From: Reclinomonas americana ATCC 50394
Lineage: Eukaryota
Direction: 5' to 3'
DNA: 42,567 bases
NCBI GenBank assembly: GCA_048213135.1
Contig: PS015020.1
Coordinates: 330,430 to 372,996 of the forward strand
Shown: positions 9,101 through 42,567 of the stretch, piece after piece
How the letters are laid out: each line of letters opens with the position of its first letter
How positions within the stretch are numbered: the first letter of the stretch is position 1
Notes under the pieces: generated by a model
The model's input: the letters and a program-made list of their open reading frames with translations, nothing else
Told to the model about the DNA's origin: nothing
Databases searched by the model: none
Made by a program: the position numbers and the translations under genes

Positions 9101-12100
9101 GACGAATCTGGTGGAGACCCTCACCCTGGTGAAGAGCACTGCGCTGAGCAACAGCATTACTCTCACGCTGACACCAAGTGGTGTGGCGAGGTATGTCGCT
9201 ACACTCACCTCTCTTCATTGCTTACCGCGTGCACTCACACGCGAGCTCGCTGCTCCGTCGCAGTGTGGCCTATGGAACGACACCGCGCATCGAAGTGAGC
9301 GTGTCGGGATCGGTAGTGAGCACATGCGCCTGGTCAACGGCGTCGGTGGCGGCCGTGGATTGCACGGTCACAGGCCTCCAGCCGCTGACACAGTACACGT
9401 TGAGCAGTCGTCTCGTGACGGATCGCTTTGTGTCCAGCAGTCTCACTTCGCAAGGTGGGCTGTGGAGTCGCGCAACAGCGAGATGAGGAGACTGAGCCTT
9501 GCTGATTACATGTCCCTTGTTTACAGTGTGGACTGCACTGCCGGCCTCGATGGTTCTCGATCGCTTCGAGCTGGACACCAGCACCACCAACCCCGTAACG
9601 CTACGGCTCAAGGCTTCAGATCCTCCCCCGGCTGGCACGACGTCGTCGCCAGTCTTTCAAGTCATTGACGACAATGATTTGTCGCAGACACCTCTCGCTT
9701 TCACGGCCTCCTGCGACTGGACGAACAGGGGCATGGTTTCGTGCGCTCTCTCCAGCCTGTCCTCTTTCACGGCGTATTCTTTGCGTGCACGGCTCTACGC
9801 ACCGCCGTATGCGCCTGGTGTGCTGTCTGCGGCCCTGACGTTCACCACGCCGTTTACGGTGACCGCGACGATAACATCGTCTGTGTCCAGCACTCCCACC
9901 ACTGCCACTGTAGCTGTCGTCGCCTCCGAAGTGGCTGCGTTGCGTGCTGTCCGTGACTACTCGCATTCTTGTGTCTGTCTGTATTGTGACCGTCGATCTT
10001 GTGCAGCGTGAACTATGGAGCGCAACCTGTGTTCCAGATTGTGAACAACACTAACCAGAGCACTGTGCTGTCCACATCCGCTCCCTGCACATGGTCGGCT
10101 GCGTTGACCGCCGCCATCAATTGCACGATCACCGGCCTCAGCGCAGCCACCACCTACGCATTTAAAGTTCGTGTGGCAACCACGCTGGCCACCGGCGATC
10201 TCTCTGCTTCATTCACAGGTGCGCTGAAAACACAGATTTCTCTGTATTCGTCAACTGTTGCTGCACACTTAAATCTCCCCTGTATCATCGGCAGCACGCA
10301 CGGCGGTGAATGCCTCAGTGGCCGCGCAGCTCTCGACTGCCGTCGATGCACTTACGCCCACTAGGTGCGTGCGTCTGTTCCCCCGCGTTCACGGAGTGAT
10401 CGATAGAAAGTTGACACCGTTGTGCGTGCACAGCGCGGTACTGTCGTTGACTGCGTCCGCCGCACCACCGGGTGGCGAACCGAATCCGCGATTTGAGATC
10501 TATGCCGACAGCGATGCCAATTTGACGGCATTGCCGACGAATCCGGCCGTGTGCACATGGACTGGCACCGCTGTGCGGCTGTGCACCCTCACTGGACTCA
10601 CATCACCAACTGCGTACCAGCTTCGTGCGCGACTGGTCACCAGTCTCTACTGGGCCAGCACTCCGTCGGCGTTGTTGCAGTTCACCACGCCACTCGCCAA
10701 TGCGGCCGATGCGTCGCCATCTATTGTTGTCACAAGTTTGGCTGCTCGTGGGTACGTCTTCGTTCTTTTTCTCTCCACCTCGTGTGTGGTAGCTCACCAT
10801 GTGTGCTCTGTTGCGTAGTGCTGTTGTCTCCGTGACGCCCGTCTCGGCAGCATCACACACGGGGGCGCACTTTGAGTTTGTCGCCGACAGTGCGCCGCAG
10901 ACACTGTTGACCACATCGCCAACGCCGTGTGTATGGAGTGCAGCCACGGCCACCGCCTGCACGCTCACGGGCCTCGTGGCGAATCAGGGCTACGCTGTGC
11001 GCGCGCGAGTGGCGGCCGATGGTGTCGGTGCATCGGCTCTGTCGGCCACCGCCGCCAATTTCACCACTCTCCTCGACGTCTCCGTGCTCGTCAGTGCCCC
11101 TGCTCCGCGGGTTTCGTTGACGAGCGCCGTCGTTGTGCTGCAGCCGTCGTCGATTGCCACCGCTGCTCTCGGCAGCAACCCACGCTTCGAGATTGCGCTC
11201 GCCAACGGCGCCACGCCAACGCTGCTGCAGACGGCACCCACCGTGTGTGTGTGGTCGAACGCCACCACGTCGCCCGTGAGTTGCACTGTGAGCGGACTGG
11301 CAAGTCAGGCACAAAATCTGTTGACGGTACGTGTGCGTACCAACTCCAACAGCGGCGCCTGGAGTCCGAACACGCCTGGTATGCGCCGCCTGCCACCGTT
11401 ATTCTATAGTGTTGCACATTGACTCTCCAATTCTGTGCCAGTGAACACCTTGCTTGCCGTCGCGACCACCTGTACAGTGGCGGCGGTGTCGCCCAAGCGC
11501 GTGTCGGTGACGTTGAGCGGCACTCGAGCGCCGACCGACTCTGACGGCTCGAGCCCGCGATTCGAGGTGGCGATGGACGGTGCCACCGGCACGCCACTCG
11601 CGACGTGGCCCACTCGCTGTGCGTGGACTGCGCCACCCAGTGGCGGTGCACAACCAACCACCACTTGTGACATTCTTGGTGTCGTCGGTGCCTCGCTCAA
11701 ATTTGTGGCTCGTGTGCGCACCGACTCGTTAGTTGGCGTGTGGTCGGCAGCCACGTTGGCTGGTGAGCTCGTGAGAATTTCCCCTGCAGTGCGACCTGTA
11801 CTCTCTCACGTGCCAGTCATATCTGTCCCTCCTTGTTCTTTGCAGTAACGGTACCGGGGCCTACGTGCACGGGCACCACGCAGCTGGCGGTGTCACTGGG
11901 AGGCGGGTCAGTGACGGTGAACGACGGCAGTGTCTCCAGTAACATGTACAGTCCAGATCTCTCGTGTCTCTGGGTGCTCACGGTGCGTGCAGAAAACTCA
12001 GCTCTTGTTTTTTCCGAGACTCCTGTGTGACCAACTCTCTATTCTCCCGCTCCCTCTAGTCCACCACCGACGTGCCTGTCGGTGGCTCCCTTCTTGTTCT

Positions 12101-15100
12101 GCTAAAGCGACTGGACACGGAGGTCGAAACGGATCTGCTCACGGTCTACAAAGGGCGGCAGTCCGACGCTGGCGCACTGGTCCGCAAATGGTCCGGCAGC
12201 CTGTCGCCAGCCGATGCAATAGCCGAGGCCGGAGGTAAGAATGGAGTCGCGAGTGCATTTCGAACCACGACACTCACTAGAACGCACGCACACACCACAC
12301 CGCGTAGGCGTCTCGAGTGTCACGCTGCAGTTTACGAGCGACAGCAAGGTTCAAGGCCGCGGATGGGAGGTTGCAGTCTCAGGTTTGTCGTTCGCCGTCA
12401 GGAGAGAAAGTGGCGCTGTTCTGACTCGGGAGACCACAAAATCAGTGTTGCGACCGCTGCAAGTGTCTTTGAGTGGCGGTGGTGAGTTTGGCAGCACTGC
12501 CACCATTCAGCTCACCGCACGGGTGGCGGACCCCGAGCAAGCGTCCACAGCCCTGCAGGTGTGCTGGTACCGGTGTGCTGGAAAATATGAAGCAAAAAAG
12601 CGCCCTGCTGACCTCTCTGAATCAACTGCAGAACTTGCCGGTGCTGTACACGTGGAGCTGCTCCATTGTTTCCGACTCTGGCTCTGGTTCTGCGGCCACT
12701 TCTTCTCCGTGCCCCTCGAATGCTGCATTCTCGTCTGCCACCCCGTCCAGTGTACTGGCGTTGCCGGCGAGTCAGCTCGGAGCGGGGAGGTGCAGACAAA
12801 CCCACAGCACCCTGCTTTTCCTGTCAACAGTATGCTGACTGTGTACGCTTGCAGATATCTCATACAGGTTACGTGTCAGCGCGGGGCACGGCAGCAAAGC
12901 GCCAGTGCCAGTGTCGTGGTGCTTGCCAGCAGCGGTAATGGTGACAGCGGCAGCAGTGGCAGCAGCGGAAGCGGAAGCACTGGCGTTTATTCGGTGTCAC
13001 TCTTTGAGGTATATTTTATGCCTCGCATCTGTGCGAGACACGCGTCTCATCCCAGTCTGACCCCAACGCACATGCGCACAGCCACCGACGTTCGCTGCAA
13101 CGGCCGTGCGTGATCCGACGCTGCCAGTGCTTGTGCAGGCCGATGTGACGGCATCCTCGGGTGGTACCGTCCCCAGCAATCTCACGTACGAGTGGACATT
13201 GACGACTGCCAACAGCGCGGTGTCCGCCTCCGTTGCTCTCGTGAGCGTCCTCGATAGCAGCGGTCGTGCGACTGCGGTGCGTATCGAGGGCGGCTCACTC
13301 ACCAGTGGCGTCGAGTACTCGATCAAGGTCGTGGTTCGCGACAGCCGCGGCAACACTGGTAAGTCGTGTGGAGTTTCGCTTTCGGTTGTTCTTCTCCATT
13401 TACGCGCGCGTGCGTGCACACACGCTGCAGGCTCTGGTTGGCACGCAGTGACCATCGGCACGCCACCCACAGTCGTGGGTCCTCTGCTAGTGACCCCAGC
13501 CAGCGGCACCGAGTGGAGCACCATGTTTACCGTGTTATGTGGGACAGCCACTGCATCGGCATCTGCCTCCATGACGTACACGTATTACGCGGTCGATCCT
13601 GCCTCGGCAAAAAAGGTGTGCGAGTAATTGTGCTTGTATGCGTGTTCTTGTGTGTGCGCCTGTTTCACCATCCGTCGATGCAGGTTCTGGTTGGCACGTC
13701 TTCCGTGCCGCGGATGGCGATGCAACTCATGCGAGGGCGCACGTCGGACGGGCAGCTCACGCTCGTCATGACTGCGGTTGACAGCAGCGGACTGACCAGG
13801 CGCGTACAATACTCTGTATCCATTTTGTTGCGGTTTCGCGTGTGCTGAATTTTTGTGTTGCTCGTAGCGGAGAGCTGCAGACAACCGTCACGGTGCTACC
13901 ATCTGCTGCGTCATCGACTCCGTCAACCTCGCCTACCGACGCTGTTACTGCGGCCAAGCAACGATTGGTGGACGTTTCGAACTCCGTGTCCAATATGATG
14001 CCGCCCGCCAGTACGACAGTGGCCTCGAACGCAGTTGCACGAGTGGCGATGGTCTTGACGCAAGTTCAAGGTACTGCAGGCAGTGTCATTTCTAGTGCCG
14101 ACGGTTTGCATTTCGTAGTACTCTGCTCGAGAGTCCTTGCTGTGTGATCTCTGATGGCTTGGCTTGCTCTGCTGTAGCCTCTCGCGCGATCGTGGATGTG
14201 GCAAGTGTGCTTCGGCAGAGTGCGTCGTCGCTCTCCTCGTCGATGGAGCACTTGCCTGCTGTGAAAGCGGTGGTGGAGCAGTTGGGAACTGTGACGTCGT
14301 TGCGTTTTCCTTGTTTCCATCGCTCCCCCGTCCTTCTCCTCTTTGCTAACTCGAGCTGATCGGCAGTCTCATGCCGAGCTTGATCGAGAGTCACCGCAGC
14401 CAAGCGCTGCTGCAGGTGACAAGTGCGGTCAAGTCTATTGCATTGTCGTCAGTGATGCGTGATGCCAGTGTCGTCACGGTGAGTGCTTTGGCGTCGTCGT
14501 CGGCGGCAGCGCGTGTTTCAAGCGTTTTTGTTGACTCATTTTTCCTGAATTAATAGAGTGTGCTGACGACCACGGATCGTTTGCTTGATCGCACAACACT
14601 TGGGCTGAGTACCGGCGCCGTCATGCCACCCTTTGCGGTAGCGGCGGCGGCAGAGGCTGCACGATCCGTGCTCGCTGCCGCAACACAGACCAAGGTTGGA
14701 TTGAGAAAGCGAGATTGCTTTTTCGTTGTCATTCAGTTACACACTAAATGGTCTGTGTGGCGCAGTCGGAAAGCGACGCTCCGCCCACGTACAACGGGAC
14801 CAACATGCGAGTCCAAGTTCAGCAGCTGTCGGCCACAGCACCGCCAAACAGCAGCGTCATGGTGCACACTTTGCCTTCTCCTGGTGTGGTTGTGCGTGCT
14901 GACGTATGCGTGTGTCTGTGTAACGTGCAGATGGCCACCAATTCCACCTCGATCACTGACGCCCTGGCACAGCTCACCACCAACACTGGTACGATGACTG
15001 TCGTTTGCGACTGTGCGTGTGTGTAGATTTTTTTGCTACTCTGTTGATCACGCGTGCTCAGGAGGCTCGGTTGCGGTCGTGCTGCCTACCTCCATGAAAA

Positions 15101-18100
15101 CCGCGTTTTCCACAGCCAGATCTGTGTCGGTGACCGAGTACAAAGGTGCGTGATGCTCCGTGTCGTGGGTATCTTGTTCCTTTTGCGCAATATGATCACG
15201 CCTGTCGATTTCCAGGACTCAATCCGCACGAAGCGGACATGACCCCGCTGGTTCCCGCTCTTCTTGCTTCGTCAGTGGTCACGATCGACCTGCTCGATGA
15301 TTCATTCAAAGATGTCAATGTTGCCAACGCCACTGAGCCGTTCTGGTTCGATCTTCCATCACGAAACCGCACTGCATTTGACAGTATGCAACAAAAGCTG
15401 GTGCGGTTGTGTGCGGTTGTGTGTGCGTGTGTGTGCCCCGTCGCTGACGGATATAGCACAGGACTCGCTCGCGGCTCTCGTGGACAAGTGCAGCGGCGCA
15501 GCGACGACTGCACCCGCCTCGGATGGCACGCGTCTGTTGCCTCTGTTCAATGTGTGCCAGCAGAATGCAACTGCAAGTGGAGGTTCCACTCGCGCCGTGA
15601 ACACCACCGGTCTGCCACAGCACTTTGACCTTTGTCGATACTGGAGCGTGAGTGATGGACGTTGGATGGGCGACGGCTGTTTGTCATACCTAAAGGTTTG
15701 CGTTATTGTGGCAAGCTGCACGGGACATCGTGCTCATTTTCGAGTTGTAGATTCGCGGTGGCCATGTCAGCGCTGTGACATGTGCTTGCCGCCATATGAC
15801 CTCGTTTGTGCTCGACCTGGCCGATGTCAACTCTGCATCCGTGCCCTTTGCTCGGTGTGTCCGTGTGTGAGAATTCACTGCAACGGCGCTGTCTCTCATT
15901 TGCGGAGGCGGATACAGCGCACCGATTACTGGTTCATTAGTCGTCCTCCTCTTCACGAGTCCTGTGTTTTACTCTGTTCTCGGTTCGTGCCGTGTCTTGC
16001 CTGTCTCGCGTGACTTGCCTGCCTACCTGACCTTCTCGCCACCGCCAGTGTGCTACCTGCTCTACCTGTCGCTGTGGCCTCTTCTCGCTCGTGCTGACCA
16101 CCGTCGTGACGCTCGCGCACGGTTGTACGCCGTTCGGAAGGAACTGGCTGTCGCCCGCGAGGTACGCAGCACTGCTTACACGTCGTTGTTGGCAGGCAGT
16201 CGTACTGAAAACTACGCACGTCATGTAACAGAAGCGCGCTCCGACAACCTACGCGCCGTTCCGCGGTCTATTCGACTTCCGCGAGTGCGTAGATCAATAC
16301 AACAAGTTGGCTGCTGGCGCCGGTCAGTCGTGCATCACGTTGCGACCCGCTGGCTACCATGCCGAGTTGCGCGCTCGTGTGTGTCAGCTCATTCTCGTAC
16401 GTTTCTCAAATAGGTCATCATCTCCTCTTTTCATCCAGATGTGCTGTCGCTCCACCATCGCCCACAAACGGCGCTGAGGGTCGCTTTGTGGAGGATTACG
16501 CACCATCGTCGCTCTGCCTGTCGGAATACGGCGGCGATGCGTTTGGTGAAGTAGAGACTGCCAGATCTCCGTTGGCATCGCCCCCACCGCTGCCACAAGC
16601 GCCGCCGCCGCCGCCACCACCACCACCACCACCTGCGCCGCTGTCGTCTCTCCCGCGTCACATGTCGCACCGTCGGAGCCTCTCCAACGATGCCATCTCC
16701 TCGCCAGTTTTCTTCCGCCGACGGGCTGACTCGGTCGTGTCGACGGTGAGTCATGATTTATGAGTCTCATTCTCCTGTTCTTGTATTCAAGCTGCTGGTC
16801 AGGAGGACAATGATGACGACACGCCAGTGCGCTCGTCGGTGCGCACAATGTCGTTTGCTTCCTGCGCACAGCCGCCCACTCACGATCGATGTGCGCACAG
16901 AGACGTGGCTCACGCGCCGCCATGCTGCCGTCCATGCCGAGGGTTACGGCCGCCGCTTGTGTTCTGGGTGCTGGGTGCTGCTGTGTTGACACGTATACTT
17001 ACGTGCAGACCACGGACGACATTCGTGAGGTGCGAGACACGAGCAGCAACAAGGGTGGTCAGCTGACATACCGATCGAACAAGCGAGTGGACGGTGAGCG
17101 GGTGTTGTGCTGTTCTGTGATGCGGCGAGCATGTGGTCACTGAAATGCCCTCGAGCAGATGTTATTCGTGCTTTGCGGTGTCGCTCGGTGGAGCATGGTG
17201 CGTCGAATCATCTTCTGCGCGTGCGTTGTTCCTCAAGCTGACTGTCTCCCCTTTTCAGTGGTCTCCACGGAGACAACCTTTGCTACGTTCCGCAAGTCCT
17301 CCACCGCCTCCGTGAGCAGTGACGTTGGCCTGCTGGCCGCGCCAACGGTGCTTGTTGCTCGCATGTACTTGCGTTGCGATTGTATCTCATCTCTTCTCTG
17401 CACTTCTTTACGTGTACAGTTCACGCCAAGTGAATCCTCCAAAAGTGTGGTCGTGGAGGTTGCGCTGCCGCCAGTGCCTCACTTGCAAGTGCCTGCCGGC
17501 ACCGATCTGCGACACACTCTGCGGCAGCATCTGACAGCCATTGCGCGATTCCGCAGTTTCGTTTATGATGCACACGGTATGTGTTATCTGAATGCGGAAC
17601 ACTCACCATTGCGTTCGTCGTGTAGAGTGTGTTGGCCGTGTGGTGGAGGAGCGACGAGCTCAGTCCGCCCTCTCGCGAGCTTGGGATTTCACCTGGCACC
17701 ATCACTGGTGGTGCGCAGTCGTCTCCGATCGAACCGGCAATCGATACCGGCGCACACAGCGACTTACGGCATTGTGGTTCAGCCTGTTGTGCGTTGCCTT
17801 CTGTTGCTCGGCGTACACCACCTTTGCCACTGCCACGGGTGCGGCAATGTCCCTGGTTGCGGTCGTCGTCATGGTGCTGGTTGCTGGTGTGTTATCAAGT
17901 TGCATCTCGATCTCAAAACATGCATGTTGTACTGAGATGCTGTCTGCGCAGCACCTTGCCTTACAGTGCTCCGACACGCGGCTGGCGCACTCTTCCAGTG
18001 CACACCACGCTTGCCACTCTCGAGCACCTGGTTGGAGACTGGTGATTCGGTTCTTCGCCAGCGTCTGTTGGAGCAACCGTCACTCGAAGAGAGTGTCATT

Positions 18101-20518
18101 CGACCCACATTGGAGCAGGTGAATTCCAATCCTTTGCACAAGTCCGCGGCGGCTTCTTATCGCACTCTGCAGAGTGGTCGCGTGGAGCCGTTCGGTGAGG
18201 AGAAAGGTCCTGCCGCGCACTCGTCCAAAGTCAGTAGCGCAAGCCCAGCAGAGTCGCCATCGCGTTGCGTGCACTTTCGGCGACAGTCCATGCCACCAAT
18301 CATTCACATCCATTGCCTCCCACGCGCAGTGCTTGGAGCGTTGTCTTCGGGTTCGCAGACGACTCGGAGTACGTCGATGGCATCACCGAGCACCGTGGGA
18401 CTCGTTGCGGCTCATATTGTGCTGCTGATTGGAGACTCTCCGTTTTCACTCACATTGCTGCTGCTCTCCGATTTGCAGATGAATCTCACAGTCACGTCTG
18501 CCAAGGATCAGCCGTCACCTCGTGTGCCCGCGGTGAGAGACTTATTTCTTCATCACGAATGTGTTGCTGGCTCATCACTCACTTCAATTGCAGGCGGGAT
18601 TCTTGAGCACCCGGTCCGACAGTCTGCGAAAGGTGCGCATACAACAAGCGTGTGTGTGTGTGTGCATGTGCTCATGGTCATCTTGCGTGACAATGTTGTG
18701 CAGAGACCGCTCCCGGTCGGGCAGCCGCCAAGACTCGCAACTCTTGCCAACATCTCTGTGTCGGTGACAAGTAGTGAAGAGGTGCAGTGTCGCCTGGCTC
18801 GCCGCCTCTGTCCATTTTGTATTGCGCTCACGCGCTCCATCTCCAGTTCGGTGCGAGTCTTCCGGGCTCCATTGGCTCGCCGACGTCGGCAAGCGTGCAA
18901 GCCGCCGGAGCAATCGTATCTGATGACGACAGTGACGCGGCAACGGACGATGAATTCAACGACGGCTCGCTGGTGGTGAGTGCACACGATTCAATGCGTT
19001 GTGATCGAGGTGCACAGAGTCACTGACGTTGTCTGGCAGAGCGACGGGAGCGAGTTCACGGATCATAGCGTCACCAGCAGCATGGCGTCTACGCACTCCG
19101 CATCCATGGTACGTTGTCTTGCTTCTGTTTGAACGCGCGTAGCGCCACCAACTGTCAACGCGCAGCGAGTGCGACCCCGTGCACGTCGTGCAAGTCGCCA
19201 GTCAGAGCAACTGCCAGGTGCGTCTGGTTGGGCATTGCTTTTTCCTCAAAAATCTCTGACTGATTTGGTAACGGCGTGCAGCTGCGTTCACCATTGTTCA
19301 CGTACGCGCGGATGAGGGTGGACGGCGAGAGGACATGCGACACATGCGACTCGCTGGTGTCCTCGGCATGCCCTCATCGTTGCCGTCGGTCATTGAGTTG
19401 TGCCCGGGCCTGTACGACTCGATTGTGCTACCACCCGACGCTTGCACTCCCGACGGCACGCTCACTCTGCGTGCGTCGCATCGTCGTACCGTGGTCAGTC
19501 AGCGAGTGGCGCGCGGGGCGTGCGTAGCAATCAGATGTCTGAGTCGTTGCTGCCTTGGTGCAGGTTTTCTCCCCGGCGGCATTCTCGCTGACCGCTCTGG
19601 AAGAGCTCGCCAACTGGCGTCGTGAGCTGTCAGCAGGTCGCGCGCAGCTCCGTGACATGGAACATATTGTGCGTGAGCTGCCGCCAGCAATTACCATTCG
19701 TTGCGATTCACGAGCGGAAGGAGATATTGCAGTTGCGCTGATCCATGCTGTGTCGTTTGCACTGTGCAGACTTCGCCTAACACCTATCTATCAATACGCA
19801 GGTGCAGCGCGGTCACCAGCTGGTGCGACGCATCGTGCTGGATGGTCTGTTTGTCGATGGAGCCAATGTGGCGGTGGCGGTGGCGGGCGGTGCGAGTGGC
19901 TCTCGTGCCGTGGAGATTGTTGTGCAGAACTGTGATTTGCGAGAGTGTGCACACGTGGCGAGTTATGACGCGCCGCTTACGTATGTACGAGCGCGAGTGC
20001 GGGCCGACGGGAATCTTCACATTCTGCCTGCGGTCGCTGCCGCCAGCACTCCTCAGCTGAACGGCGAGGAAACCGACAAGGACGGTCGCACAGTCAAAGC
20101 TGTGCTTACGCGTGCGGTCGTCGAGTCCTACAGAAAGTTCCTGGAGGGCAACCTGCCGTACAGGTTTGGCGTGATGCATAGGCGGGCGCTGTTCCTTTCA
20201 TGTTGCTGACAAGTCGCGCAGTGTGGTGTACGTCACGTACACGATCTTGTGGGCCCTCGGTGTGGCGTGTTGTGTACTCCTGGGCACCGTGGCAAGTGAT
20301 GCCGTCCTCCGCACGAGTGTGGGTACAGCAGCGGCCGTGGCCCTTTGCGGAGGGTGTGTACACTTCGAACTGTTTTTGCAGAGCATACATTAACCTTAAC
20401 AGTCAACATTGTTATCGTTGTACAAAAATGCAGGGCGGCTGTGGATTTCCTGGTGCTGGAGATGATTCTCATGTTCGTCCGCAGACGGTTCGCTCGGCGA
20501 TCACGTGCGGGAGAATGA
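6184..20518 (+). CDS. Giant polycystin-1/PKDREJ-like receptor: signal peptide, 13 FN3-like repeats, CUB, REJ, GAIN/GPS, ~5 TM, with a beta-helix-like cytoplasmic insert (many exons; start codon uncertain)
   Basis: Signal WSLAVVFMLLVAMSATA; FN3-like ..CxW..C.LTGL.P.T.Y..RVR; CUB; REJ (SLSGGG..ADPE..YTWSC, PLLVTPASGTEWSTMFTV); GPS CRYWSVSDGRWMGDGC...CACRHMTSF; PKD1-like HHWWCAVV...YRRTQRLTAL; LPYSVVYVTYTILWALG; end AAVDFLVLEMILMFVRRRFARRSRAGE*. Confidence 0.82.
6447..11762 (+). repeat. 13 tandem FN3-like protein repeats of gene 3
   Basis: Cores in order: CAW, CTW, CTTW, CWW, CTW, CQW, CAW, CDW, CTW, CTW, CVW, CVW, CAW, mostly preceded by a (T/S/N)P(R/K/V)F motif and followed by C..(T/S)GL. Confidence 0.8.
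11846..12385 (+). other. CUB domain of gene 3
   Basis: CTG...VNDGS...YSPDLSCLWVL...LKRLDTEVETDLLTVYKG...WSGS...VTLQFTSDSKVQGRGWEV. Confidence 0.85.
15630..15815 (+). other. GPS autoproteolysis motif of gene 3
   Basis: CRYW...WMGDGC | IRGGHVSAVTCACRHMTSF; HMT at 15793-15801. Confidence 0.9.
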
Positions 20519-24867: not shown

Positions 24868-25084
24868 TGATAGTAGACGACGAGAGTACGTACGTAACGA
24901 AACGTAACGACGACGAACGAAACGAACGCGTACGGTACGGAACCGGTACCGTACCGGACCGGGTCCGGTTACCGGNNNNNNNNNNNNNNNNNNNNCGGTA
25001 CGGTAACGGTACGTACGTACGGTACGGTACGTACGTACGTACGACGAGTAGACGTAAGTAGGACGGTACGTACGGACGACGACG

Positions 25085-32149: not shown

Positions 32150-34270
32150 TTACTTGCCCGTTGGTGACGTGGCGCCCGGTGGCGGCTTCACCTCTCGAGG
32201 TTCGCAACGCAGCGAGGCCTTGTCTTGCTCGATCTCCGACAGCACCGGCATGTTGGTGAGCCAGTGGAGCAAATCTACCACCACCTACGTCAGTCCACTT
32301 CCACACAAACAAGCACACACCGAAACAGACGTAACATGGTACAGGGGTGATGGCATACGGCGTCTGCTGGTAAAAGGCGACCTCCTTGATAATGGCGGCG
32401 ATCTTCTTGTACTTGAAAAAGTTGACCATCTTGGTGTCGCCGACAAACGGCACGTTCTCGTCCAGGTGCACCAACAGCGTCAAGAAGGAGCCGACAAACG
32501 GAATCGAGGGTGGGAAGGCGGCCTTGACCGCCGCGCGGAGCTTGCCGTTGTTGGCGTCGAACGAGGAGAGGTCCTCCAGCGCGGTCACCATTTCCTGCTT
32601 GCGCTTCGACACCATGGCCTTCATCTTCTTCAGCCGATGGATCGGCGCCGACGTGAGGCCCATAACAATGGCCAACAGCGTGCTGAAATTGTGCAACGGC
32701 GAGCGACAACACTGCACGACACGACACGACTCGCAAGCCATGAGCACCAATGTGGGGAGGAGGCACTGAGAGACAGAGAAGTACTGACCTCGGCAATCTC
32801 GATCCACTTGCCGTACACCTTCTTGCGCCGGTACGCATCCTCCTCCGAGACAATCGACGACGCCACAAACCACGTCACCATGGTGGAGCGACGAATGAGA
32901 CGAATAATGTTCGGAGCGATTTCCATCTTGGTGGGTCGCGTCCACGCCTGGCGAATGAATTCGCGCGGCTGAATGCGACGGTACAACGAGTACTCGACCA
33001 GAGTCAGCTGGCGCGCCAACTCCATTGAATTCCACTGCAGCAAGTTGAGCGGGGCCGCACGGCTGACCAGTCGCAAGTACTTGCGCGGCAGCAGAGGCGG
33101 CGCCAAATTCACCACCACGAATTTCATCCAGTCCAAGTCGCTCGTCTGGCCACTGCCCAGCAACTGTAGCGATAGGAGTGAGACAGGCGTCGGAAAAGCA
33201 GCACCCCCCTCTCTCGCTCCCTCTCACCTCCTTGAGAAGCGCACGCTGCAGGATTTTGGCACTGCTGCGCTGGTGCGTGGCCATGAACATGTCGCAGAAT
33301 CGCGTCAGTCGTGCAATTAGTGGCACGTCCAAATTGTAAAACTGCTGATCGACAATCTTGCGGAGCACGCCGAGCACACTGCGTGACATGACGACACAGC
33401 AATGAGGCAAGATATCGACATTGATCAATGGTCAACCGCCTGGCATACCGTGTACGACTGGCATTGCTGTCGCGTTCGTCGCCTCTTGCAAACTCCGGGG
33501 CAGCAATATATCGCAACATTAGCTGCTGGATGAGTTCGGTTGGAGTGGTGAACCAGCGGTACGTCAGCAGGAACTCGGTGGAGAATGCTTGGCCTGTGAC
33601 GCGCGCAATCAGTGAGGAGAACAACAAGGAGAGGTGGGGAAGACTGCGACATGGAGAAGAGAAAAGAAAAAGAATACCGCAGACGAAGAGGAAACGCAGA
33701 AAATAACAGGAGTGACGGGAAATTAAAGAAACAACAACAACAACAAGAAACAAGAACGAATGAAGAAGACGAAGGGAGAGAGAGAACAGAGAGAGAATGC
33801 GAAAACATCAAGGACGACAATAAACAGGAGGAGATACTCAAAGAAAGCACAACAAAGACCCGGGGACGAATGAAGGTGGAGAGAGAGAGAGAGAGAGGAA
33901 GAGACAATGCCGAAGACAACGATGAAAGGAGGAGAAACTGACGAAAACACGGCAGAGATCAATGACGACTAAATGTAGTGAAAACAAAGAGAGAGAGAAA
34001 CGAGAAACCAGAGCTAAAATATATAAAGTCACAGCAGCCTGATTCACGCACTTTCTGTCTCATTCCCATTTCCTCCCTTTTCCCTCTAATTCCCCCTTTC
34101 CTCCCCTTTCCCTCCCATACGAACCGAAATTCTCGTGACTGGCCAACTTCTCAATCAGCTTCTCGACCGTGCCGGCGGCAATCTGACGCACGCCAGGTGC
34201 CTCCTGCGGCAGTGGCACTGCTCCCGATGCCCCGGCCGCGTTGTCGCCCTCCTCCTCCAGCTCGCCCTCA
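32150..34270 (-). other. REM + CDC25-homology RasGEF catalytic domain of gene 5
   Basis: Canonical CDC25 motifs present in order; intron 34124-33594 joins ENF|GQAFSTEFLLTY in frame. Confidence 0.93.
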
Positions 34271-37200
34271 AAGAGGATGACGGTCGGGCTGTCCTGCTCC
34301 ATGGTGGCAGCGATCCGTCGTGCATTCGTCACCTTGCACAAGAGTAAAATGCATGAGAACGGCAACAACAAGAAGTCACGTCGAGCAGTGACAGACCTCC
34401 TCATCAAACGTGCCCAGCACGCCGCCCGACGAAATCAGCGAGTCACGACGTCCGCCCGTCGATTGCGGCGCGGGCGGCGCACCGCCAATGACAATGGACA
34501 TCATGTCCTCGAGGCGGCGCAGGCCAAACTGCGCGAGGCCCTCGCGCAGATACAACCGTTCGCCCCACTGGCGCATGTGGGCCTCCAGTTCCGCATTCCA
34601 CCGCTCACATTCGGCCTCGTTGAGACCCTCGCCCAACTGCACAACAATGAGATTGTCGGTGGGAGCGTGAGGAAGCACAGTGGCGGGCGACTGCACGACA
34701 GACCTTGATCAAAATGTGCAACATAGACGTGACCTCCGGCTGTGTAAACAGCAGCGTCGGCATGCGGCAGTGCGACATTACGGCACTGAAGACAAGAATC
34801 CAACTGCGCTGTCCACGTTGCATCTCAGGAGCTCCTGTGTGCGACGGGGGAATGAGTTGCAAAAATCGAGAGCACCATCACACAACCGCACAACAAACCG
34901 TGGCAGTAGTGTCGCGAGAGAAGCGGGGCGTACAGGTTGAGGAAACAGGGTAGCGCGCTGGTGAATGCATGCTGCAGCGGCTTCGACAACTCCGAAAGCA
35001 GTGGGGTGGGGATCATGACCGAATCGCTGCGCGCACACACACACATAATTGGTAAGCACGAGGGACACACACATCCACAAAAAATGAGATCGCCAAACCT
35101 TCCACTGCCCAACGAGGACACCTCTGCGCTCATGACATCGCTCAAGCAGAAAATCGCTTGATGCAACATGGCGGCGGCCTCCTCCACCACCGACAGCATG
35201 GGGCCGGAGAGCGAGCCGTCAGCCAGAGAGCCACCGAGCTGGAAGGCCACTGAATCGGACTTGGCGGCGGCGGCAGTCGGCAGCTCGACCGACGGCGGCA
35301 TCAGCAGTGCCAGTGCGTGGCTGACTTGCGTCGACGGGGGCGGACACACGCACATGGCAATGGACAACATGTCCAAGGCCACCACGCCAGCCACATCACC
35401 AAACATCTGTTGGGAGGGAGGTGAGTATGCACGCCGTCGCTTTTTTCTTTCTTTCTTCATGGACGCAACGGCTGGTACGCCGGAAGAGCTCTCCACCGGG
35501 AAATCGGACTTGTCGACATCGTCGGGTCGCGCAAAGAGACGAATCACGTGATTGAGCAGGCGCACAAAATTGCACACGGCAGTGTACGTGAAACCGGCCA
35601 CCCATGTCCTACGCGCCCACGAAAGCAGTGAGGGACAAACAAAATAAAACAAAATGACCAAGCAAGCAGCTGCTGCCACGCAACACCAAGTACTTGCGCT
35701 CGAGGCTTCGCAGCAAATAAAGTACACAGAGGAGCAAGTCGCGCTGCGTCGCCAGAGGGAGGAACGGTACTTGCTGCACATCTTCGATAATCTGCGATGT
35801 AAGGCAGCAGGCATCGTGTCAGCCTATGCTCCGACACACTCCGTGCGTGTGTGTGTGGTTTCGCGACAACGCACCATTTGTAACAGTGGAATATACAAAC
35901 GCGCGACGCGATGCCGCGCTCCAGGATTCTGGTATCTAGCATCGAGATCGTGCTTCCGCAGCACGTGTCGCACAAGAGACACGGCCTGCAAGCACAATGA
36001 GCACCAACAAAAAAACAACGGCAAAAGTCATCTTTCCCCTCGTGCACGACGCACCTCGGATCGAATTACAGGAGACGGTTGGCGGAAGGCACGATCAAAC
36101 ACAAACGCCAGCCACTCGGGCAGACGCGGCAGCTCGTCAAACTCCGACCCAAGCGGACCGGGCACTGGAGACTGACTCAATTCCACCAACTCCGAGTGGT
36201 CCATCACCACGCGCAGGAACTCGAGCTGCACGCGCAGCGCGTACTGCGACACCGAAGTCAATAGTTGATCCAACTCGTCCTCCGGCTTGACTGCCTCGTC
36301 TGCTTTGGCCGTTGGTTTGGCCGTCAGCTGATACTCGACAGGAATGGACACCGGCAGCGGCTCCGGCGCCTTCTTCGACTGCTTGCGTGACTTGCCGTCC
36401 GCCGCCGCGGGCGCCTCCTCTTCCTCTTCTCCTTGTCCGAACTCCCAGGTGAAGCCAGAGGTCTCCATGAATGTCAGCACCTGTTGAACAAGGAGAGTTG
36501 AGACATGGATGCAAAAAGGCGTATCACTCGTGTCAAACAATAACACACCAGCTGCATGACCGTGGGCGTGTCCAACACTCCAAACAGATCGTTGATGAAG
36601 AGCGCCACGGCACGGACCATGCCCGTGGCCGTCGTGCTGGCACCCCGCTCTGCTACAGACGGTGGCTGCACCAGCAGGTCAATGGCGCGATGCGACACGC
36701 CCTCGATCACCAGCTGCAGCAGCTCACGCGTGCGGAACAACTGGTCACGACAATCACCATGAGTGCACTGCGCAGAGCATTCTCTCGCTCCCCACACACG
36801 CTTTCCACTCACATCCATGGCTGCCGTGTTGGGATCGCTGGCAGGGAGGCTCTTGAAATGCAACGCCAGGCTCTTGGCAATGAGATCAAACATGAACCAC
36901 GAGTAGGTGGACGAGTCGCGCAGAGCCTCCGACACGGTGTGCTCCTCGGCCAAGTTGGAAATGTTGGGTCGTGGAAGAGCAGCCTGAAACACCGAATGAT
37001 GAGCGAAAAAACATACAAATGCTGTGCAGAGCACACACATCAAAACGCACCCGTGCAGTAAAGCGACGCGTGTCGGCCAGCAAGTTGGCCTGCTCCAACA
37101 TGTCGACCTGCAACAGCGACAGTGTGTTGCAGAAACGGTGCAGAAGCAAGCCGTACTCCTGTCGCCGTGAGAGCACCGAGCTTTCGACCACCACCGACTC

Positions 37201-39318
37201 GTCAATGTCCTCCTCTGCTTCCTCGTCCGCCTCGGCGGCAGCCACACCATTTGTCGGCGACGACACAGATCTCGAACCCGAAGGGGCGGCTGCCGAGCTC
37301 GGCGACTGCGCTGGCGACGTGGGCGACACGGCGCCATTGCTGCCGCTGCCGCTGCCGCCGACGCCGTCGGCCGTGTCCGCAGCGCTGATTCTTCGCAGAC
37401 CCACATCGACCGCCACCATACTCAGCGACTTGGAGTGATCGCGCGGCACAGGTCTCGGGCAGAACTCGTGCTCCTGCGACGTCCACGACAGACTGGGGTC
37501 GGCACGCCGGGGCGGCACTTGCTCTCCGGCCAGAGATGAAAGGAACAGCGGCAAGTCGGGCCGCCACCGCAAACGTCTCCGCAGCACGTTGTCGTCGAAT
37601 GGTGCCGGCTCGAACATTGGCACAAACGTGAAGAGCTTCAGCCACTGCTCCAGGAGCACAAAATGGAACGGCGGCGACAGAGGTCGACGACGCGGCAGGT
37701 CGAACACGTACTCCACATACGACGACAGCATCGTGTTGTGTCGCGTGTTGAATAGGTCGCCGGCGGCCACAGTCGGTCCTTGGCCTCGTGCGTCCGGCGC
37801 CAACAAGAACGCCGACACCATGCTCGACTCCATCACCGCCGCCACCGTGTTGGTGGCCGTGGGCGACAAGGATGAGCTGCCAGCATCAAAGCTGCCATTC
37901 GGTGACGACATGGTGGGTGCAGTGGCGCCCGAGGCACCGCCGACGGCGCCAGACGACGGCGACATGACCGAGTTGCGGCGCGTGCGAGAGGCGTACGAGC
38001 TCAGATCCGAGTTGATCGTGGACGAACTGCGTGACGACGTGGGCGACGACGACGAAGCGGTGCCGATGGCCGCGGCCATCGAGATGGGCGACATGGACTG
38101 CACGGTGGTGCCACGGCGCTCGAGACCAGGTGTGGAGGTGCCGGAGGCACCACTGCCACCCACAACCGTGGAACTGACAAAACTGGAGAGGCCGGTGGCA
38201 AACGAGGAAAGGTCGCCCGTGGTCTGCGCACGCACATTGTCCTTTTGACGCGACTCCTCGTCCGCGGCCACGGCACGTGCCGCGCCGCGCAGTAGCGACA
38301 GGAGCGTGGCAAACGTGGTGCGCTGCACACGGGCCACCATGTCGGGGGTGGCCAGCGGCTCCGAACTGAGCGTGTCGCGGTGCGGCGCCGACAAGAGCGG
38401 GTTCACAAACGTCGACACAGGGCTCGAGAAGCGGCGGTGGAGGAACGGGTCGTCCACACTCAGCGCCTGGCTCGTGGGCAGTTCGGCGACCTGCAGAAAG
38501 GGGGGAAGGAGGGAAAAGGAGAATGAGCAGGCAGGTGATACAACACAAGCGCATAGAAACAAACAAGACAGACCTCGGCCAGAACGCGGAACATGATGTT
38601 GAGGATGACGGGAAGGAAGCGCAGCAGATCGGCAAAAGCCGTCACCTCGCCAGTGGCGTGACGCAGAGGCACGGTGGCGGTGACCCATTCTTGCAGGGCG
38701 TGCTTGATGCGCTCGTGGTTGGGGTCGCCGGAACTGTGTGGCCGAGTTAGGGAAGGGGGAGGGGGGAAGGGAGGAGAGGAGAGAGAAGAGGTGGCTGACA
38801 TGGAGGCACAGAATATGCAGAAGAGATGGGGGCGAAGGAGGAAAAGAAGTAGAAACTGCGTAAGAGAAAGAAAGGGAATGGAGAAAGGAGAGGAGACAGA
38901 AAAGGTGGCTGACATGGAGGCGATGCAAAAGAGAAGGGGGCGAAGGAGGAAACGAGAAGCAGAAATGGCGGGAGAGAACGGGAAAGTAGAATGAGAAAGT
39001 AGAGGAGACAGACATGGTGGAAGAAATATGCAAAAGAAGATAGAGCGCATGCGCAGAGAGAGGGAAAGAGAAATGTAGGAAGGAGAGATGAAGGTAGAAA
39101 GCACAGAAGACAGACAGAGCGAGAGAGGGGGGAAGAGACAGGTGGAAAGGAGAAAGGAGAGGAGAAGGAGAACTAGTGAGGAGACAGGCACGGTGGCAAA
39201 GAGTACAGGGGATAAGGTGTGTGCAAAAGAGGGAGAAGAAGGGCAGAGAATGTAGAAAGGAGAGAGGAAGGTAGAGAGTAGAGACAGACACGGCGCGAGA
39301 GAAAGTGTAGGCGAGAAG

Positions 39319-39368
<50 letters not shown>

Positions 39369-42248
39369 TAGAAGAAAAGCGCAGAAGAGACGTTGTGCAC
39401 GAGAGAAACCCCCGATAGAGCGGCACACAAGTGCGTGAGGGGTGAATGTGCAAGCGACGAAACGCAAACTCCAGCACGTCCAACAGCGGTCGAGACAGGC
39501 GATAGAAATCGCGGAGTCTCGAGTGCTGCGGTACCACCGAGCTGATCATGCGAGTGGAGATGATCAACAGCTCGCGACTGTTGGCCAGCGTCGGCAATCT
39601 GCGCAGCATCAGGCACGTGAGCAGATAGTATCAAGACAAACACGGGTCCCGCAAAATAGGACGCAACTCAGCGCGTACAGAATGCGATGTGTACGACGAC
39701 TTGAGTTGTGTAAACACCGGCAGGCCGTGGATGGTGTCGGCGGCACCGCCCTCGTGCAGCGGCAGTACAGCGTAACCGATCAGAGTCTACAAAGAGAGTG
39801 CAATGTTAGCAAAGGGGAAGGGAAGAAAGATGGAGAGGAGGAGGGAGGCGAGAGAAGGAGGCGAGGGAAAGAAGGATAAGGGGAGCGGAAGCAATGAGGG
39901 GCAGTAAGAGTGGAATAGCAAGGGAGACGCGAGAAGGGTGAATAGAAAAGGGAATTGGAGGAAGCAGTAATAGATAGGGGAACGGGAAAAGGACGAAGAG
40001 AAAAGGGAGTGGGAGGAAGCAGTGACGGACAGAAAGTAAGGGAAACACGAGAGGGACGAAGAGAAAAAGGGTGGATGCGGAAGGCAGTATCGAAAGGACT
40101 TGGAAATGAGTGGAAACGTGGATTTGCGAGTGAGAGAAAGAGGGAGCAAGAAGTGAAAAAATACGCCTATCTCGCGACACTCTTTCTCCATTCCCCGCCA
40201 CCCACTCACCTTGTGTCCCGGTGTCCACAAAAACACATTCTTCGACACGCCACGCTTCTTCGGCACATTGTAGATGAGGAACAGCAGGTGATGCTGACCC
40301 GAGGTGGTGACCAGCGGCATGGACACGCGAAATTCGTCGCGGAATGCGGGATTCTGCGAGAAGAAGAAGGTGAGTTTCTACCACACAAAGCACCGACAAT
40401 ACAGCGTTTGATCCAACCTGACTCCTGTAGTGAACCTGCAATGCAACATACGGACGTGAGTACGCGACGAAACAAACAAGACACAAAGAGAGATAGAGAG
40501 AGAATCACGCACATGTGTCTGCGCGCAATTGGTCAGCAGCGGCGCTCCGTGCTTGGTGTAAATGTTGTGCAGGATGCCGGGGAGCGAAAAGATTTCGCGA
40601 TCAGTCGGGTAGAGGCCAAGTGTGCCGCGCGGCAGCACATCAGTGTCACGATACAGCATCTGCGTGCCACCAATCGTCGCACAATTAAACTCTCTCACCG
40701 CAAATCACCCTCTCTCCCACTCCCACGCACCTTGACCAACACACTCTTGACGCCCTGCATGCCGGTCAACCGCACGGTCCGCGGGTACACAAACAAGTCG
40801 TTCACGTAGTTGAAGGTGGGGACGCGCGGTGCATACAGCGGCATCTCCACCACGCTGCGGAAGCTGCGCAACAAACGCTCCTCCAGCGCAAATCGCAAGT
40901 AGTGCGTGTCGATCTCGCGAGGCACGTCGGCCGGCAACAGCCCCTCTTGGCGCAGCGACAACGCCACCATCTCGGTCGACGGCTCAATGCCCTCGGCAAA
41001 GTCGACCAGGCCAGTGAGACCCACGGACAGGCCGCGTCGATTGAGCACACGCGCCGCCGGCACAATGGTGATCTCCTCGTTGGGCTCCAATCCAGCATTC
41101 ACATCGTCGTCCTCCACGTCGGCACGCAGCGGGGTGATGTTGAGCAGAATGTGCCCCGGCAGCACAGTGAGACCGGCACCCTGTCGTTTCACCGCGTCGC
41201 ACACGTCGAATGGGCGGCTCTCGTCGGCCGATGGCACCTGGCAGTGAGAGTGAGGGATCACCACCACATACACAGAAAAAATGAGCGAGAGAGAGAGTAC
41301 CTCGTAAAGCGGCTCCAGTTTGAAGAGTCCCTCACGAACGTGCAACGCCTCCAGATCCGACCGCACAATCACCGACGTGCGGCGGTCTGACTCGGCCAGC
41401 CCCGACATGTCCTCCTCGTCCTCCCTGCGCGCGACAAAACGAATGGTCAATGGCGGGGGATATGACACGCGCGCACCGCTTCAAATAATGTACCTGTCGG
41501 TGCGGATGAGGCGGAGGGATGTCCACGCGAAGGGCTCGCGGAACTGCGAGAAGAAGCGCCTTTGCTCCTTGTGCTTGAAGTCGACCATCCTGGGAGGTGA
41601 GAAGGAGTATGAGTGGATCACCAGCAGGCTCTGTGAATCTCTCCATTGCACGCAACTCTCGATCGAGATCGTTGCGTGGCTGGTACGGCACGAGCGAGAT
41701 CGAGTGCGGCGCACCGTGCAGCACTCGCTCCAACCACACCACCAACACCACACGCGCAGTCGGCTCCGACAACGTGAACAGCGCACGTGCGCTCACGGGC
41801 GACCGTGAATCGCTGCCAAACTCGTAGCCACCCTCCGACGGAGGAAGAGCAGCCATGTGCTGTGACGAGAAACATATACTGTGAGAAAAGTGCGAGAAAC
41901 AGTCGGGGGTGGAGGAAAGAAAAGGACCTTGGCGCTGTTCAGCTGAAAGTGAAACGTCTCCGACAGCTTCTTCTTGGTGATGACATCGTACAGAGCAGCA
42001 CCGCAGAAAATGGCCTCCAAGTCACCGGCGTCGAAACGCACACGATTGAAGGAGATCAGCAGCTTGGTGCAGCTGAGGAAATGAAATCAGCAAGACGCTG
42101 TCTTTCTATTGTATGCAGATCAAAAGGACGCAACGTGTTGAGGGCATACGGCGGCAGCAGTCGCCGGTTGCACAGCAGCGACTCGGCGAGAATCGGAGGC
42201 GCCTCGTACGGGTTGAACAGCTGGAATAGCGGCAATGAAGGTGAAAGC
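32150..42248 (-). CDS. Zizimin/DOCK-C/D-type N-terminal, C2 (DHR-1) and ARM scaffold fused to REM + CDC25 RasGEF domain (multi-exon, probably 5' partial)
   Basis: DOCK motifs: EAIFCGAALYD..KKKLSETFHFQLN, WLERVLHG, FREPFAW, YVNDLFVYP, HHLLFLIYNV, IGYAVLPL, STRMISSV, FLPVILNIMF, YSWFMFDLIAKS, QLEFLRVV, KHDLDARY..RVARLYIPL. RasGEF motifs: AGTVEKLIEKL, FLLTYRWFTTP, ELARQLTL, LHNFSTLLAI..GL, IPFVGSFL, VNFFK, SLRCEPR. Confidence 0.85.
38785..39040. repeat. Intronic ~114-bp imperfect duplication
   Basis: GTGGCTGACATGGAGGC...GGGGGCGAAGGAGGAAA at 38791 and 38905; partial third copy near 39011. Confidence 0.75.
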
Positions 42249-42288
42249 TGCATTGTCAATAGGGGAGATGTGTGAGCAACGCGGAAAA

Positions 42289-42567
<279 letters not shown>

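Follow-up and report, generated by a model that had tools for sequence, protein, structure and literature searches.

Can the regulatory body of a DOCK protein be coupled to a catalytic module other than its own? The question is raised by a 42,567-nucleotide (nt) stretch of DNA from Reclinomonas americana ATCC 50394 (assembly GCA_048213135.1, contig PS015020.1, positions 330,430 to 372,996 of the forward strand; hereafter "the window"), the minus strand of which probably carries, at 42253-32150, one spliced gene for a DOCK-C-like scaffold that lacks the DHR-2 domain and runs instead into the REM and CDC25-homology domains of a Ras guanine nucleotide exchange factor (GEF). In our curated model this gene has 28 exons and encodes approximately 2198 amino acids (aa). 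The N-terminal two thirds of the protein is homologous to DOCK-C (DOCK6/7/8), as far as approximately residue 1340 of DOCK8, and the C-terminal quarter is a Sos/RasGRF-like REM+CDC25 module. A first-pass annotation, made from the sequence alone, had proposed a catalytic-domain swap at 32150-42248; the place and the minus-strand series hold, the upper edge differs slightly, and the swap itself is supported, as DOCK8 homology stops at about residue 1340 and the next recognizable module is REM+CDC25. When a profile of 14 full-length database proteins with the same architecture (the relatives described below) was compared with PDB, the SOS1 REM-CDC25 structure was the best match (E-value: 1e-110), followed by full-length DOCK6 (E-value: 1.6e-88), the DHR-1 domain of DOCK8 (E-value: 3e-35) and that of DOCK1 (E-value: 1e-11).

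A predicted gene joining DOCK and RasGEF domains

The window gene was compared with Pfam and PDB exon by exon. Pfam RasGEF_N (PF00618) was matched by exon 24 (33593-33449; E-value: 1.2e-8, 35.5 bits, cut-off 28.3), and RasGEF (PF00617) by two consecutive exons, 33163-32789 and 32711-32343, that cover profile positions 1-78 and 83-180 of 181 (E-values: 1.8e-20 and 1.6e-22; 74 and 80.7 bits, cut-off 23.1). The module at the end of the series is thus the complete REM+CDC25 that had been predicted. The second CDC25 exon, searched against PDB, was most similar to the RasGRF1 catalytic domain (E-value: 5e-19) and also matched SOS1 (E-value: 1.2e-11), with the hairpin segment aligned. In the printed alignment of that segment, the window protein has Val and Glu where SOS1 has Leu and Glu, and RasGRF1 likewise has Val; we take these two hairpin positions to be the catalytic residues that open the nucleotide site. 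A word-index search with the RasGEF exon among proteins of 220-2000 aa gave just one match, to a protein of 295 aa.

The DOCK side was traced through the relatives. When 17 proteins combining DOCK-like and RasGEF parts were compared with the window by tblastn, collinear minus-strand matches ran from 42065 to 32334, independent of any splice model. These included matches on exon 2 (P0081, E-value: 7e-5; P0111, 3e-4; P0142, 1e-3), exon 3 (P0118, 6e-5), exon 6 (P0118, 1.6e-8; P0024, 4e-7) and exon 8 (P0010, 1e-4), at 37992-37630 (P0118, 1.3e-5; P0024, 5.8e-5) and 36974-36486 (P0111, 3.4e-5), and on the second part of the helical-repeat region at 36480-34899 (P0024, 1.5e-4; P0035, 4e-4; P0036, 6e-4). 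The relatives' profile matched the spliced window model with an E-value of 1.9e-223, a figure that depends on our own exon model. Profile positions 92-702 align to model residues 37-688 (E-value: 5e-74), a stretch that spans the C2 region, and a second alignment covers model residues 854-2186, from the helical-repeat region on to the GEF module.

Searched singly, exon 8 (40353-40210) matched Pfam DOCK-C2 at profile positions 68-107 of 187 (E-value: 1.4e-5), with a score of 25.6 bits that lies below the 33.6 cut-off. The only PDB match of exon 16 (35985-35875) was to DOCK6 residues 1141-1176 (E-value: 0.011). No DOCK was found in exon-level PDB searches with the exons of the first helical-repeat part (36549-39598); exon 21, searched alone, had no PDB match, and exon 22, searched alone, had neither a Pfam match nor a DOCK match in PDB. 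Pfam detected DOCK_C-D_N neither in the 25 exons of the window gene that were scanned nor in any of the 17 relatives, and a word-index search with the 484-aa exon found nothing among 8000 candidates of 1601-4570 aa. Taken together, the exon 8 match, the profile alignment and the C2 scores of the relatives identify a DHR-1/DOCK-C2 domain in the window protein. A helical-repeat region is identified by the DOCK6 match and by the alignment of the relatives' profile to DOCK8 residues 806-1340; TPR_DOCK9 (PF28208) is in the precomputed Pfam list of P0024, a model that our local Pfam copy did not report. The exon domain matches and the collinear tblastn series bear out the DOCK6-11/zizimin-type order (N-terminal region, C2/DHR-1, repeats) that had been read on this strand.

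The predicted parts of the gene, in the order of transcription and with the evidence for each, are as follows.

42253-42150, 42072-41928, 41859-41657, 41589-41527 and 41424-41301, minus strand: exons 1-5, N-terminal region (exon chaining and curation; tblastn on exons 2 and 3)
41237-40731, 40659-40513, 40353-40210 and 39786-39695, minus strand: exons 6-9, pre-C2 region and DHR-1/DOCK-C2 split over four exons (Pfam, tblastn, relatives' profile)
39598-39470, 38733-38574, 38490-37039, 36983-36813 and 36740-36549, minus strand: exons 10-14, first part of the helical-repeat (ARM/TPR_DOCK9-like) region, with a serine-rich low-complexity insert in exon 12 (tblastn, relatives' profile)
36480-36055, 35985-35875, 35791-35685, 35608-35479, 35406-35099 and 35026-34899, minus strand: exons 15-20, second part of the helical-repeat region (DOCK6 match in PDB, tblastn, profile alignment)
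34834-34704, minus strand: exon 21, linker block restricted to the fused proteins (invariant column in the relatives' alignment, profile alignment)
34636-34397, minus strand: exon 22, last exon before the junction; its first 20 or so residues continue the conserved linker block and the remainder is an insert peculiar to the window gene (profile alignment; third-position G+C of 0.75 in frame)
34396-34333, minus strand: proposed junction intron of 64 nt, GTCTGT...AAG (splice-site form, length, composition)
34332-34125, 33593-33449 and 33378-33228, minus strand: exons 23-25, REM (RasGEF_N) (Pfam; tblastn with P0024, P0118 and others; profile over the pre-REM motif and REM)
33163-32789, 32711-32343 and 32284-32150, minus strand: exons 26-28, complete CDC25-homology (RasGEF) domain and C-terminus (Pfam; stop codon TAA at 32152-32150)

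Throughout 42253-32150, the minus strand holds successive open frames with high third-position G+C, the frame changing from one to the next, in a window of approximately 58% G+C where introns are short and of the GT..AG type. Exons were chained with a simple script using codon usage and splice sites, and 36480-34397 was then curated by eye in a three-frame view. In the resulting model every one of the 27 introns begins with GT and ends in AG, and the spliced coding sequence (6597 nt) is open throughout without frame repair. Apart from the junction intron, 22 of the 26 introns are 55-102 nt long, and the other four measure 159, 423, 531 and 736 nt. The flank upstream of the gene and its four longest introns are filled by extended low-complexity sequence, either (GA)n/(TC)n or pyrimidine-rich (42260-42567, 38750-39450, 39800-40200 and 33650-34100), and the long open frames seen in these tracts, with their many Ser-Leu or Glu-Arg residues, are spurious. 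The start codon and exon 1 are placed tentatively, and the true start of the gene may lie past the window's end; positions 1-91 of the relatives' profile, which are N-terminal, have no match in the window model.

Relatives with the same architecture

The first RasGEF exon was used in a HMMER scan of 1.84 billion representative proteins, which gave 2967 matches with E-values ≤ 1e-3. The proteins examined were the best 150 of these matches plus P0001 (151 in total); among the best 150 were several of approximately 2000-2400 aa in which the match lies close to the C-terminus. When the spliced model was compared with the 151 proteins using phmmer, 17 matched both the DOCK-like part and REM+CDC25 collinearly. 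Pfam identified DOCK-C2 (57-117 bits, cut-off 33.6), RasGEF_N and RasGEF in 14 of these, the other three being N-terminally short proteins of 827-882 aa; none of the 17 had a DHR-2 lobe by Pfam. A word-index search from P0024, the closest relative, brought a 15th full-length example, P0152 (78% identical to P0024, with the same architecture), as well as canonical DOCK8 proteins in which DHR-2 lobes A, B and C are all present. The fused architecture is thus shared by no fewer than 15 full-length public proteins: 14 representatives at 50% identity and P0152.

Two of these proteins bear directly on whether the two halves belong together. P0024 (2100 aa) is encoded on a contig of 6750 nt and P0152 (2114 aa) on one of 6919 nt, and in each case the frame fills over 90% of the contig, so both halves lie in one uninterrupted frame and are not the product of a gene-prediction merger. 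The relatives also share a linker block ahead of REM with a tryptophan that is invariant in 14 of 14 aligned proteins (W1634 of P0024, approximately 75 residues before REM in that protein). This block, with its invariant tryptophan, is present in the window protein, where it aligns to exon 34834-34704.

Full-text literature searches returned no description of a DOCK-C2+RasGEF protein, nor does one appear in parts of PMC8923023 and PMC5499878, and the family is apparently undescribed in the literature. The first-pass annotation knew of no described example, and to that extent the searches agree; the window gene is not a one-off, however, given the public proteins listed above. As the architecture is already present in public protein sets, the window gene is one more, very divergent, member. 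In the ESM Atlas, DOCK7-like clusters (0.82) and generic RasGEF clusters (0.90) were found. These serve only as leads, and none of the clusters brought the two families together.

Four further database proteins are of note. P0156 of Balamuthia mandrillaris (2678 aa) is named "RasGEF domain-containing protein" at NCBI, and Pfam finds in it DOCK_C-D_N, DOCK-C2 and DHR-2 lobes A, B and C, while RasGEF is absent; a DOCK-C2+RasGEF relative may have been the source of the name, which would hint at a named relative with that architecture. P0161 (2049 aa), a canonical DOCK, has a LIM domain (1303-1355) inserted after the repeats and before DHR-2, and is another departure from a fixed architecture. P0160 (2129 aa, partial, from a brown alga) has DOCK-C2 and TPR_DOCK9 in its precomputed list and, by Pfam, neither a DHR-2 lobe nor RasGEF; either the model is incomplete or this may be a further type of DOCK that lacks DHR-2. 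P0089 (1755 aa) has tandem REM-CDC25 modules, with matches at 157-566 and 652-1043, and two matched stretches are also seen in many of the top RasGEF hits.

The junction, the missing DHR-2 and other explanations

At the junction, the DOCK-side exon ends in ...GAG|GTCTGT (34397/34396) and the next open exon begins at 34332. Removal of 34396-34333 joins exon 34332-34125, the start of REM, in frame; an alternative CAG acceptor at 34296-34294 is also in frame and gives an intron of 103 nt. The proposed junction intron resembles the others in three respects. First, two more introns of the gene have the same donor hexamer, GTCTGT. Second, its 64 nt fall within the 55-102 nt typical of this gene. Third, its T content, 0.41, exceeds both the average of the 23 other short introns (0.32) and the value for exons (0.21), and of 612 windows of 64 nt taken from exons not one is as high. 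The gap of 64 nt between the exons is thus intron-like in form, in keeping with the earlier remark that no obvious intergenic gap separates the halves. Going by homology and splice-site form, we infer that this intron is removed and that both halves are made as one polypeptide.

The strongest rival is that there are two adjacent genes here, separated by fission either long ago or recently: a DOCK-like gene without DHR-2 that ends at TGA 34378-34376 and a small REM+CDC25 gene that starts at ATG 34302-34300. Left unspliced, the DOCK-side frame does end at this in-frame TGA, 18 nt into the proposed intron; the ATG has a strong context and lies 30 nt past the acceptor; and the AAG acceptor is the only one of 27 that is not YAG (23 are CAG and three are TAG). 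These three features, which count against a single gene, make a stop and restart physically possible. However, the spacing from stop to start would be merely 73 nt, when other non-coding stretches beside the gene reach hundreds of bases, and the reading frame is kept by both candidate acceptors. Each half is present in the same protein in the relatives, and for two of these the whole is one open frame on a short contig. In addition, one aligned stretch of the relatives' profile (model residues 854-2186) crosses the junction at 1738/1739, and exons 34834-34704 and 34636-34397, which lie upstream of it on the DOCK side, encode the pre-REM linker block. It is this homology that tips the balance toward the fused reading, and we consider two separate genes unlikely.

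A pseudogene or an assembly chimera, in which a decaying gene or mis-assembled halves only appear to form a unit, is very improbable. The window contains two runs of N, at 1493-1635 (143 bases) and 24976-24995 (20 bases), and the assembly is therefore a draft; both runs are far from the gene, though, and there is no N inside 32150-42253. Against this explanation also count the uniformly GT..AG introns, the coding sequence that stays open without repair and the identical order of parts in independent database proteins.

The absence of DHR-2 was examined with two kinds of profile. The Pfam models of DHR-2 lobes A, B and C had no match with an E-value ≤ 10 in 25 window exons or in the 33 minus-strand open reading frames (≥ 30 aa) of 33600-36600, a range that takes in the 34300-36000 interval in which, by the first-pass annotation, a DHR-2 match would have refuted the swap. 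Of the domains that it had proposed to search for, DOCK-C2, RasGEF_N and RasGEF were matched on single exons and DHR-2 was not. A custom DHR-2 profile of 486 positions, built from eight canonical DOCKs and run without filters (--max), gave a best E-value of just 3.4 among 1036 six-frame open reading frames of the whole window; the spliced model was outside the 45 best rows (E-values up to 54), and none of the 17 relatives scored better than 13. The eight canonical DOCKs from which the profile was made, including an amoebozoan protein, had E-values ≤ 1e-202. When the relatives' profile was aligned to DOCK8 (P0153; E-value: 1.5e-120), only residues 136 to approximately 1340 were aligned; DHR-2 in DOCK8 opens at around 1600-1614, and lobe A of P0153 begins at 1614. 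A possible resemblance of exons 35026-34704 to the start of DHR-2 lobe A was supported by neither Pfam, PDB nor the custom profile, and this candidate was dropped. The least probable explanation, that of an unrelated RasGEF gene next to a canonical DOCK whose DHR-2 has escaped notice through divergence or fragmentation by introns, draws on the fact that the exons are short, that weak domains can escape detection and that most DOCK-side exons likewise have no Pfam or PDB match, but it has to contend with these profile searches and with the room available between the last DOCK-homologous block and REM, which is approximately 340 residues in the window model and 150-220 in the relatives, against 486 profile positions.

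Beyond the three features of the junction, some points weigh against the main reading. The exon model is our own, from a simple script and curation, and the profile E-value of 1.9e-223 depends on it; automatic retraining of the exon finder over-split the gene (37 pieces, with exons of 3-18 nt), and the first pass was kept. DOCK was found by just one of six DOCK-side exon searches of PDB, and with C2 under the Pfam cut-off, the exon-level DOCK evidence by itself is suggestive but thin. The canonical DOCKs in the trees and in the DHR-2 profile are few (six vertebrate DOCK8 proteins, one from Balamuthia and one other). Finally, the window protein is placed apart in one of two trees. In the tree of the DOCK part (25 rows, 1114 columns), a branch with an SH-aLRT (approximate likelihood ratio test) support of 97 separates all 16 fused proteins, including that of the window, from the eight canonical DOCKs and a partial protein from a brown alga. 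In the REM-CDC25 tree (92 rows), the 15 fused database proteins, the three short ones and two further short proteins form a 20-row clade with a support of 98, and the window protein is outside it, on a long branch (1.26). Constraining the window protein to group with the fused REM-CDC25 sequences (42 rows), a group that was named after the first tree was seen, cost 2.7 log-likelihood units and was not rejected (approximately unbiased test, p-AU = 0.43).

A single origin of the fused family is compatible with these data, in which the sampling of canonical DOCKs is narrow. The wider proposal, to which we give an even chance of being correct, is that the DOCK scaffold, made up of the N-terminal region, a phosphoinositide-binding DHR-1 and the repeats, is a portable regulatory unit and that one exchange in eukaryote history of DHR-2 for a Sos-like REM-CDC25 module founded a lasting and diversified "DOCK-Ras GEF" family. 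On this single-exchange reading, the family would have gone unnoticed since because DOCKs were assumed to have a fixed DHR-1/DHR-2 core.

Elsewhere in the window, a long gene or series of genes occupies 6363-19000 on the plus strand and has weak Pfam matches to fibronectin type III, purple acid phosphatase N-terminal and REJ domains; it looks like a large extracellular receptor-like protein. There is also a weak PH-domain match at approximately 4.4 kb.

Predicted function and comparison with known systems

The domain content predicts that the protein acts as an exchange factor for a GTPase of the Ras subfamily. The DOCK-derived C2 domain and repeat array would serve as a membrane-targeting and regulatory chassis, as the histone-fold and DH-PH region does in SOS: the C2 domain may bring the protein to phosphoinositide-bearing membrane, and the repeat array may bind partners or autoinhibit the catalytic module. 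Phosphoinositide or partner input of the DOCK type would in this way be coupled to an output of the Ras type. The redirection to Ras/Rap that had been suggested earlier, and the sensing of lipid by the scaffold, are predictions from domain homology. DOCK dimerization runs through lobe A of DHR-2; as lobe A is missing here, that mode of dimerization is expected to be lost.

A set of related proteins in which the whole DOCK regulatory body is kept but joined to an unrelated GEF fold, predicted to act on another branch of GTPases, indicates that the scaffold can work apart from DHR-2. The contribution of DHR-1 and of the repeats could be studied in the fused proteins as in a natural experiment, and these proteins may give the organisms that carry them a direct route from DOCK-type inputs to Ras signalling. 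For annotation, such genes are liable to be named "RasGEF domain-containing protein" alone or to be mis-split at the junction.

In parts of PMC5499878, DOCKs are described as having a conserved DHR1/C2 and DHR2 organization, accompanied at most by one SH3 or PH domain. The window protein shares with DOCK-C proteins (DOCK6/7/8, "zizimin-related") a homologous N-terminal region, DHR-1/DOCK-C2 and helical-repeat array in identical order. In contrast to them, it lacks DHR-2 lobes A, B and C, in the place of which it has REM+CDC25; the Rho-GEF activity that defines DOCKs and the lobe-A dimer interface would therefore be missing. With SOS1/SOS2 and RasGRF1 it has the complete REM and CDC25-homology module in common, but it has no histone-fold, DH-PH, IQ or proline-rich region, and its regulatory N-terminus is wholly DOCK-derived. 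The closest counterparts are the unnamed DOCK-C2+RasGEF_N+RasGEF proteins (P0024, P0152, P0118, P0127, P0011, P0111 and others), with which it shares the collinear order of domains, the pre-REM linker and the lack of DHR-2. Among these it is the most divergent member, with 26% identity to its nearest relative in the DOCK part and 35-36% in REM-CDC25, and it differs from the other fused proteins in its serine-rich insert and in approximately 90 extra residues before REM.

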